Shown here in pieces: positions 54,001-57,000 of a DNA stretch of 64,000 bases; within the stretch, counting starts at the first letter, position 1, and each line of letters opens with the position of its first letter. The stretch comes from a virus. The stretch spans positions 1 to 64,000 of IMG/VR virus record IMGVR_UViG_3300035698_006643; one strand, written 5' to 3'. Made by a program: the position numbers.

Positions 54001-57000
54001 TCGCTGGTGCAAAGATGAAGGAACAGCCTTTCTTACGGGCTGCCCCACAGATTTCCTGGGCGGCTTGCTTCACGCTATTCTGGTCAACAAAACCGTAGTT
54101 GCTGTGGAACCTCTTGATTTCAGTGTACGAACCACTGAGGGTCTGACTTGCTTCTACGATGTAGATGACGCCGGGGGTCGTATGGTCATTGAATAGGAGT
54201 TCAATAACACCCCGAGCTTTCGTCAGGTTGTTGTAGGGCTGTGTCAGTTGAAGCATTGGTTCCCTCTTAGGCCGTCACTTTCCATTTGCCACCACGGTAG
54301 GTCAGTTCAGCGAATCACGTCTGCGTCTGGTTCGTCACAATGAGTTCTGTCCAACCTTTGTAATTCCGGTACTCTTCCGGGGTTCCGTAGGGCCCTCGAG
54401 CACCTTCAGACATATCCAACGGTGGATTTTCAGGGTTGTTCTTGACGATTTCTTTCAAGGCTTTCTTCGTCTTTGCCTTGCTGTAGATTGCTAGATTCAG
54501 CGTCGGGGAGTACCCGGCCATTTTCCGTGAAGCGACCCGATTAGCGATAGTAGAGCAATTCATTAGGAACCTCCTTGCTACCAGTCCCCAGTTATAAACG
54601 AAGTATGAAGTCAGGCTTCGATGAAGATGTTCTGCCAGATGGTCGTTTCCATATCAGCGATAGCGTTCCTTGTCCTGGGTAGGCTCCAGGCCAACTGTCG
54701 AGAAATCTCAGTATCTGATTTCTGTTCGCACCACCGTAATCGGAAAAGGAAACGGAATAGGAAGGTCGGGGCTAGGAAAGCGTCGATTTGGTGTACCACT
54801 TCTCGGTTTTCAAATCCCTTCATCATCTCTTCGTGCCACACGTCCATTTTTCGCTCGGAAGTGTTGCACAGTACTTCCTTCGAGTAGCGTCGGTTGTGTC
54901 GATTAAGATTCAAAGCCGTAGACCGGGCGACCATATAGATGTACGACGACGGCTTCATCCCACGGGCGGTATCAAATGAATTAGACCCCTTGTTTTTCTT
55001 CAAAAGGGCTACACAGACTTCCTGAATCAAATCCTCTGGGGGGATGCCATAGGTTCGGAACCTCTTGTGGACCATTCGTACCACGTCAGGATAGTAGGTA
55101 TTCAAGTCTATGCCCGCCAATTTTTCCCCCTCTATACCTGTTTTCTACACGTCTGGGTGGGGTTGGGTCAAGAGAAAAATCCCCACTTTCCAAAACAATA
55201 GTTGAAATGGTATAATAGGGTCTAGACTGGCACGCTAAACTTTGGATCGACCCGGTGGTCTAGCTACCAGCCGGCGACACTGAAGTCTTCAGCGAACGGT
55301 GTGAGTAACCAGCCGCCAGGAATGGTACTTGGCCAGTCGTCCAGCACGGGACGGCTGGCCTCTATTCGTTAATGTCACCGATGATGATGTAATTGGGTTT
55401 GCATAGCGGGTTAGAATCTAAGAAGAAGGTGTACCACAGAATCGTGGTCATTATCGGGTTGTCCGTGTACACCGGTGAATCCCCGATCCAAATGCGATGA
55501 ACTTTACTACCACCTACCGGGAAATCAATCCGTTCCTGATTGCGGTTGTGGACAACCTTACAGGGTTTCAGTCCAGTATCGTTCAGTATGAACCAGTTCT
55601 TGATGGTCACGATGTCCTGACTGTGGCAGAGAACTAGTGACTGCCAGACCCGTGACCCTTCTTGCAGGATTGAGTCCTTGATACCTTGTAGAAGTATCGG
55701 GACAGAAGGGTCCCACCAATCAGGTTCTAGGTTTACTTGAGCCATACCCACCCGCCAGCGCCTCGTTGGACTTCAGCCATACGAAGAATTGCAGTACATA
55801 CCGACCCTTGATAGTTCTTCGCCGGGGTCGTGGGTTTCTTGTGGCCGTTCTTGATCAAGATATTGGCAAGGTCACGGTAGTGCATCGCCATCCCAGGGGG
55901 ACTTGTTTCCAGGATTTCATAGACGAAATGCGAAATCCCAAGCCCCCGTTTTTTGCTAAGGGTGGTTTGAATTCGGTACGTGTCAAGCAGGGCAATCCCT
56001 TCGATGGGTCGAGGGGACAAGTCACCTGAATTGATTTTGATTGCACTACCCCTACTACCCTTCATCATATAAGCCCTATCAGCGGCGGCTGAAGAGGCGG
56101 CTGCTTCAGCCGCTTCCTTCATCGTAATTTTTCGACGGTCTTCAAGGACAGCCCTTTTCTCAGCAGCCCCTGGAACGACTTGCTTGTTCACTGGGACCAT
56201 CGGAAGAATCTTGGACTGGTCTACATCTTCAGGTTCGATTCCCAAGGTTTTGGCAAAAGCCAGCAAAGCTTCAGTCCCGACGTGTGGCGGTTCTTCTCCA
56301 GCCAACCATTGACGGACATAGTGTTCAGCGGTCAGTTCCAGATATTCTGGGGTCCAGTTGGTATCAGCAGACAAAGGAATTCTCAGTGCCCGACATTCAC
56401 GAATGAGCATCAAGCATCTTTCCTTGGTTTCAACTATCCAGCCGAAACAGTCGTCTTTGTTCCGGTAATACGATGACTGGTCTTTTCGGGACACCTTCCC
56501 ACAGAAGGTAGCCCACCAGCCCATACCAGCGGTATAGGTTGGACCTGTAGTGTCAAAATGCGGTGACTGTGGCATTGCCATTGTGGACCTCCGTCGTAGT
56601 TTCTACTGAGGTAGATACACTCTGAGGTCAGAGTTGTGCCCCAAAAAGTTTGAAGCCGCCCTAATCGAAGTCTGGATTCTCCACGACCTGCCAGTGCCAA
56701 ACCGGTTGTCGGTCCTTGGTGTGGTACAGCATCCTTCTGAGTAAGCCCTGTTCAGCCATCCTCAAAAGTATCTTCCCATTCCGGTCTAAGAATCGTTTCC
56801 GATGTTCCCCACCCTTGGCCCATTCCGTGAAATTGAACCGGTCTATCAAAAATGCGGCCCGCCTGGTCGTGAACCACAAATTCCTGAAGTTGTTCCACAG
56901 AATCATAGCAGCGTCTGTGTACATTGGGTTCATGGGATGAACAGGTCGATGACTGGGCCGAAGTACAGAACTTCGGCTGGTAGGGGTGGAATAGGAATTG

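Follow-up and report, generated by a model that had tools for sequence, protein, structure and literature searches.

A probable leaky opal allele at a tryptophan position in a small gene of a salt-lake phage with the standard genetic code

In-frame stop codons which persist under selection have been reported as common in bacteria (Belinky et al., 2021; PMC7918605), and read-through of UGA by Trp-tRNA in competition with release factor 2 (RF2) is put at about 2–4% in a report on Escherichia coli K-12 reporters (PMC10570021). Read-through of this kind is described as the source of the minor coat protein A1 of phage Qbeta, in which the UGA of the coat gene is read with Trp about 1 time in 15 (PMC8067240). 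Phages which switch to reading TGA as Trp (code 4) on hosts with the standard code have also been described (Borges et al., bioRxiv 10.1101/2021.08.26.457843), as has a host tRNA-Trp which reads UGA (PMC13092985). The locus compared with these systems here is a small gene on the minus strand of the viral record IMGVR_UViG_3300035698_006643 (72,743 bp, 51% G+C), the first 64 kb of which form the window that was analysed. The reading frame of the gene is interrupted by a TGA at a position where its relatives carry an aromatic residue. The feature is real, and the codon is rightly read as a Trp position, though features of this kind are known and ordinary. The TGA is probably a nonsense (opal) form of a Trp codon, TGG having changed to TGA, and the full-length protein would then be made only through basal read-through by Trp-tRNA. 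The layout of the gene, in window coordinates, is as follows.

54570..54576, minus strand: ribosome-binding site (RBS) AAGGAGG, which lies 6 nt before the small gene's ATG, read from the sequence
54563..54561, minus strand: start codon ATG of the small gene
54318..54563, minus strand: the 82 sense codons of the small gene, from the list of open reading frames (ORFs), the translation and the homologs
54315..54317, minus strand: in-frame TGA (opal) in the context ACG TGA TTC, in a family column which is always aromatic
54270..54314, minus strand: 15-codon tail FAELTYRGGKWKVTA, homologous to the C-terminus of the family
54267..54269, minus strand: TAA which closes the 98-codon reading, the position at which relatives end
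54254..54266, minus strand: RBS GAGGGA and ATG of the next gene, immediately after the TAA
54256..53378, minus strand: next gene, 292 amino acids (aa), with its ATG at 54256..54254

When the sequence was read directly, this layout was found to be exactly that given in an earlier, sequence-only reading of the stretch, which had picked out the in-frame TGA, the open tail and the TAA abutting the next RBS. That the 15 codons are open means little by itself, because about half of random stretches of this length would be open (our own arithmetic, (61/64)^15). The gene belongs to a family with the core motif YSKAKTKK..L..IV..NP.NPPID....GPYGTPEE. An all-against-one HMMER scan returned 17 proteins at E ≤ 0.001 and a profile search 26 at the same threshold, the window's own 82-aa product being among them in each case, and scans of viral and metagenome contigs for the gene gave 12 loci. 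An alignment-based scan of the viral contigs found one of these, L004, again and nothing further. In most relatives the alignment passes the TGA and stops no more than a few residues from where the 98-aa reading finishes (query 12–96 with P0002 11–97, for instance). A homolog search had been put forward as a check, and it bore the prediction out, with relatives continuing through the TGA position to a common C-terminus and none of the family pattern stopping there except P0009. Scored against a profile of 13 homologs (alignment A1, from which the query was excluded), the 98-aa reading reached 106.2 bits with W at the TGA and 101.1 bits with X, compared with 82.8 bits for the 82-aa product, a gain of 23.4 and 18.3 bits, respectively. 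None of 500 shuffled tails reached 106.2 bits (mean 85.7, standard deviation 1.8, maximum 94.1). Judged by this homology, which is far beyond chance, the tail is true coding sequence.

An AlphaFold model built on alignment A1 has a mean pLDDT (predicted local distance difference test) of 83.5 and a pTM (predicted template modelling score) of 0.69. The tail forms the strands 84–90 and 93–97, two of the four in the model, and the block-mean pLDDT values over residues 81–98 are 94 and 90. As the tail is modelled as two of four strands, it would belong to the domain itself and would not be a spacer. The locus resembles Qbeta A1 in that a phage gene has a UGA followed by an in-frame extension which Trp-tRNA could translate. 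However, the Qbeta stop is described as fixed, with short and long products that are both functional (PMC8067240), whereas here 30 of the 31 relatives are without the stop (P0009 ends there) and the tail is the end of a single conserved domain. The small gene has no conserved stop and, according to the model, no complete short product followed by a separate module, the two features which mark the Qbeta type. No family in Pfam or PHROG was matched by the small protein, and Foldseek searches of its model against PDB and BFVD gave no match at E ≤ 0.001, the best viral match being an uncharacterised 67-aa protein (E = 0.11). No usable match was returned by the ESM Atlas when it was queried with the homolog P0002.

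The residue called for at the TGA was assessed in alignment A2, consisting of the query and 31 relatives; the long multi-domain matches P0004 and P0017 were excluded, and the placement of P0014 is uncertain owing to an insertion. All 30 relatives with a residue in the TGA column have an aromatic one, namely Trp in 14, Tyr in 14 and Phe in 2, and never Cys; the remaining relative, P0009, ends just before the column. The C-terminal copy in P0004 also has Trp at the matching place. The locally closest relatives read VTNQQRT-W-FG, VTNPKRS-W-FG and RRR-W-FA where the query reads VTNQTQT-TGA-FA, in agreement with the Trp that the sequence-only reading had expected from a [WF]-[FY]-A..G..KV ending, a pattern which holds here. 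TGG is the sole aromatic codon one step from TGA, and the ancestral codon would on this comparison have been TGG. The implied change is G to A on the coding strand, or C to T on the plus strand, which is a transition. As in a nonsense allele, the stop lies one base from the codon of the relatives (Trp in 14/30, Tyr or Phe in the rest), and the frame downstream is intact and homologous to the usual end of the family.

The TGA is also carried by independent assemblies. Two Logan contigs span it without any difference from the window, X1 (run of 2019, 53994–54813) and X2 (run of 2017, 54213–54681); they come from salt-lake runs of two different studies, and X1 may be the source sample. Two further runs, X3 and X4, miss the codon, their pieces stopping at 54156/54363 and 54242/54576, respectively. 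The runs listed as carrying the sequence include no RNA run. A read-level check had been proposed for a true TGG; as carried out at the level of contigs, it gave TGA and not TGG in two runs. A set of 5.8 billion proteins contains the small protein only in its 82-aa form, on 2 contigs (ENA and MetaClust); no 98-aa form was found in that set or in the profile search, and both contigs covering the site show TGA. Because contigs from two independent runs carry the same TGA, an error of base calling or assembly at this codon is unlikely. The population is nearly clonal, with 1 difference in 4.2 kb over four runs.

The record is estimated by CheckV to be 16% complete, and the searches for code use and tRNAs cover its 72.7 kb. 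Nearly all genes lie on the minus strand, where ORFs of at least 100 codons occupy 65,283 nt (table 11). In a greedy map of 89 ORFs, 29 end with TGA, 40 with TAG and 20 with TAA; stops overlap the next start in six ATGA and two GTGA junctions, and the class II ribonucleotide reductase gene has its TGA stop after a complete TSCPD domain. Coding density is 0.90 both under table 11 and with TGA as sense, and the median ORF length is 183 vs. 184 codons. The genes of the 72.7 kb, among them genes for replication (clamp loaders, a UvsX-like recombinase and a RecD2-type helicase) and a portal gene, showed no further case of TGA where Trp is expected, and this one candidate sense TGA compares with 301 TGG codons in the genome. 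No tRNA with the anticodon UCA was found among the three tRNAs and the tmRNA (transfer-messenger RNA) of the 72.7 kb. The code of the phage is the standard one, and at other loci of the genome TGA serves as an ordinary stop. What it has in common with the code 4 phages described by Borges et al. (10.1101/2021.08.26.457843) is a TGA where Trp is expected, together with a relative of the small gene in such a phage. It differs from them in its unchanged density, in a terminator set of which TGA is about a third, in its 51% G+C and in the lack of a suppressor tRNA in the 72.7 kb. Neither of the signs of code 4, a gain in density or ORF length with TGA as sense and rarity of TGA as a terminator, was observed.

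That relative is L004, a fragment of a T4-like phage (bases 1–12213 of a 49.9 kb IMG/VR contig with 35% G+C), which served as a positive control. With TGA read as sense, its coverage rose from 0.71 to 0.87 and its ORFs lengthened from a median of 106 codons to one of 233, and its ORFs tile the strand densely, with small gaps, only under table 4. The major capsid gene of L004 is of the T4 type (Pfam Gp23, E = 5e-73) and crosses an in-frame TGA aligned to a Tyr of T4 gp23. L004 is truly TGA-recoded, and a tRNA search over the whole of its record found none. In the L004 version of the small gene, TGA takes the place of the near-invariant Trp of a GKW motif and is followed by TVK and TAA TAA, which parallels the WTVK end of P0005; at the column of the window's TGA this version has Tyr (TAT). 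It is the best local match to the small protein (66.7% identity over 54 residues), and the small gene is the only gene which the phage shares with the fetched loci. The window's copy is native in composition, with a G+C of 0.502 and a third-position G+C of 0.586 compared with ORF means of 0.507 ± 0.02 and 0.549 ± 0.054 for the genome. Since just one gene is shared and the window's copy is compositionally native, the L004 case says little on the phage of the window. It does bear on the family: with a member in a TGA-recoded phage, some database members seem to be cut off before a Trp. P0009 (90 aa) and P0015 (67 aa) end one residue before the first and second aromatic/Trp columns, respectively, and may be table 11 gene calls on TGA-recoded contigs, from phages similar to L004. 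Scans of viral contigs with P0009 and P0015 found nothing.

The sequence-only reading had also linked the TGA with another premature TGA in the window, since both are preceded by CG. That other TGA lies in a sliding-clamp gene.

31276..32472, minus strand: sliding-clamp gene with the other in-frame TGA (31443..31441, CCG context)

Both contexts, ACG-TGA at 54317..54315 and CCG-TGA at 31443..31441, are indeed present, but the two codons differ in origin. An intact clamp variant of 398 aa, P0018, occurs on two other contigs and is identical to the read-through translation of the window at 388/398 positions. Only residues 344–353 differ, and in P0018 these correspond to the DNA of the window read in the neighbouring frame. 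Compared with the P0018 gene, the window has one base missing near 31444–31447 and one extra near 31411–31414, about 30 nt apart, and these two compensating indels put ten codons out of frame and thereby create the TGA. On this comparison the clamp TGA is a by-product of the frameshift and does not stand for Trp; the indels reflect either an error of assembly or a variant gene that is defective. The fold of P0018 agrees with a clamp, as the Atlas's own model (pTM 0.80) has TM (template modelling) scores of 0.77–0.78 to clusters with three DNA_pol3_beta domains, while a single-sequence AlphaFold model of P0018 (pLDDT 35.4) was unusable for a fold search.

With the clamp codon explained by a frameshift, the notion of a shared CG-TGA recoding signal falls, and the common context is a coincidence to which no weight is given. 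NCG precedes the stop at 3/29 TGA terminators, and in the third case, GCG TGA (stop at 62112–62114), the frame runs into TAG after one codon. The small hairpin that had been proposed, with the UGA in its loop, does form (5 bp, bulged, −2.1 kcal/mol), but 40 of 200 shuffled sequences fold as well. The 96 nt surrounding the TGA fold worse than shuffles (z = +1.70), and no RNA structure signal beyond chance was detected around the codon. Selenocysteine would call for Cys in the relatives and a SECIS (selenocysteine insertion sequence) hairpin, and here the column is W/Y/F and the structure is at chance. In E. coli, termination is described as strong when UGA is followed by U, a point which is not used as evidence here. 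As to the alternative offered for the context, a putative deamination hotspot at CCACG, this motif is only mildly under-represented, at 0.88 of expectation (117 vs. 132.9), and TCACG is slightly over-represented (149 vs. 123.7 expected). A C5 DNA-methylase-like fragment (PF00145 positions 2–168 of 324, 115 bits) lies outside the window at 65837–66358 of the genome (locus L014), on the plus strand, opposite to almost all other genes.

The reading preferred here, an opal allele of a Trp codon, would proceed as follows. One G-to-A change on the coding strand would have turned TGG into TGA in the small phage gene. Most ribosomes would then stop at the TGA and give an 82-residue product lacking the last two β-strands. 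The 98-residue protein would arise when Trp-tRNA(CCA) beats RF2 at the UGA, which is the basal leakiness of opal codons, so that Trp would be inserted at a low level. The 82-residue product is, from the model, probably unstable or inactive without half of its sheet. The most economical reading is such an allele in a small accessory gene, carried by all or many members of a population that is close to clonal. The locus has in common with known leaky opal alleles a single TGA at a Trp-filled column, an intact homologous frame downstream and the standard code, and any full-length product would depend on near-cognate Trp-tRNA outcompeting RF2, as described in PMC10570021. It differs in having no intact sister allele by which to date the change, and in a population that is near-clonal.

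Several points weigh against this account. The intact TGG allele was seen nowhere, so that a recent and private origin lacks support, and the allele turns up in a 2017 run as well as in one of 2019, with a tail free of decay. A truncated product that is probably useless would persist only if the gene is dispensable or if read-through matters. The record covers an estimated 16% of the genome, and a suppressor tRNA may sit in the remainder; in addition, Logan contigs have a depth of about 5 and lose rare variants, so that the population could be mixed. The main rival reading is that the UGA is translated as Trp with high efficiency or under regulation, by a suppressor tRNA in the unsampled genome or a UGA-reading host tRNA-Trp, with the 98-aa product being the intended one and the phage at an early stage of recoding TGA to Trp. 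Such decoding would fit a tail that is fully preserved and structurally integral, and TGA as the sole allele in both years. It would also fit the occurrence of the family in the recoded L004 with a TGA at the Trp of GKW, the ends of P0009 and P0015 exactly before Trp columns, and the phages described as switching to TGA = Trp on standard-code hosts (10.1101/2021.08.26.457843). It is nevertheless considered unlikely, as TGA ends 29/89 ORFs, translationally coupled ATGA junctions included, the contig offers no second TGA at a Trp position against its 301 TGG codons, and its tRNAs do not include the anticodon UCA. The recoding route described in the same preprint also runs through loss of TGA terminators at low G+C, and the genome here has 51%. 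More doubtful again is the bolder proposal that this standard-code salt-lake phage, about a sixth of which is assembled, already reads selected UGA codons as Trp through an unsampled suppressor tRNA or a host tRNA-Trp and is a very early intermediate toward a TGA = Trp code.

The other explanations are much less probable. The TGA might be a relic of transfer from a TGA = Trp phage, a sense codon which, once in a genome with the standard code, acted as a premature stop. The best local match being the recoded L004 would suit this, as would a small gene which alone is shared with the fetched loci and hence moves between unrelated phages. However, the G+C of the gene is that of its own genome and not the 35% of L004, the identity to L004 (about 56–67%) would make any transfer old, with a dead tail that should have decayed, and L004 has its TGA in a different column; a transfer relic is accordingly rated as improbable. 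An equally small chance is given to a sequencing or assembly error over a true TGG. The same contig does have suspicious compensating indels in the clamp gene, of which an intact version exists elsewhere, and the depth of the public runs is low (about 5), but independent contigs from two runs and two studies match the window base for base, other assemblies gave the same 82-aa product, and no 98-aa version appeared in a search like the one which did recover the intact clamp variant. A dedicated cis signal for read-through or selenocysteine insertion, whether the CG-TGA context, a hairpin or a SECIS-like element, is largely refuted and is the least credible of all. The drawable hairpin and the three NCG-preceded terminators speak for it, but the hairpin is matched by shuffles in a region which folds poorly, the second CG-TGA is a frameshift artefact or variant and the third is closed by TAG almost at once, and the relatives have W, Y or F at the column and never Cys.

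A phage DNA similarity search with 53000–56600 gave zero matches, and no relative of the 292-aa neighbour was found in the viral contigs, which means that no syntenic relative of this phage was recovered. Nor did these searches, or the contig scans for the small gene, bring up a close relative of the phage. A scan of genome contigs found no prophage copy. Two sigma-factor-like genes on the minus strand, at 54611–55120 and 52413–52976, lie on either side of the small gene and its 292-aa neighbour. Both have Sigma70 region 2, and the second also has a GerE/LuxR helix-turn-helix; their position suggests a transcription-control module around the small gene.

Other features of the genome were observed in passing. 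A full-length phage-encoded tmRNA lies on the minus strand at 63687–64000 of the window and continues to 64058 of the genome, so that it is cut by the window end (Rfam RF00023, 144.9 bits, model positions 1–374; ARAGORN tag ANTPVRMAA). It is adjoined by the following tRNAs, in genome coordinates.

64115–64197: tRNA-Leu(TAG)
68333–68418: tRNA-Ser(TGA)
68698–68772: tRNA-Thr(TGT)

LAGLIDADG homing-endonuclease domains are present in three large minus-strand ORFs of the window (16227–19544, 6786–9557 and 1840–3801), one of which has intein splicing and Hint signatures below the Pfam curated cut-offs and one of which is fused to an N6/N4 DNA methylase segment. Short palindromes are scarce over the whole 72,743 bp, with observed vs. 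expected counts of 102/711 for GATC, 8/193 for CGCG, 58/175 for GCGC and 284/518 for ACGT, and TTCGAA, GTCGAC, CAGCTG and ATCGAT do not occur at all. This strong shortage looks like restriction avoidance.

If the TGA is an ordinary opal allele, the finding matters mainly for annotation, in that the proper entry for the locus is a gene of 98 codons broken by a TGA, not an 82-codon gene followed by a spacer, and the pattern of two TGAs in one context is not to be taken as a recoding signal. A practical side result is that the presence of the small-gene family in a TGA-recoded T4-like phage accounts for members which are cut before a Trp. Should the reading of UGA as Trp by efficient read-through prove true, this would be a natural phage which tolerates or uses a sense UGA while TGA is still a common terminator. 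The coexistence of a sense UGA with TGA terminators would then be the step that is assumed by models of phage code change.

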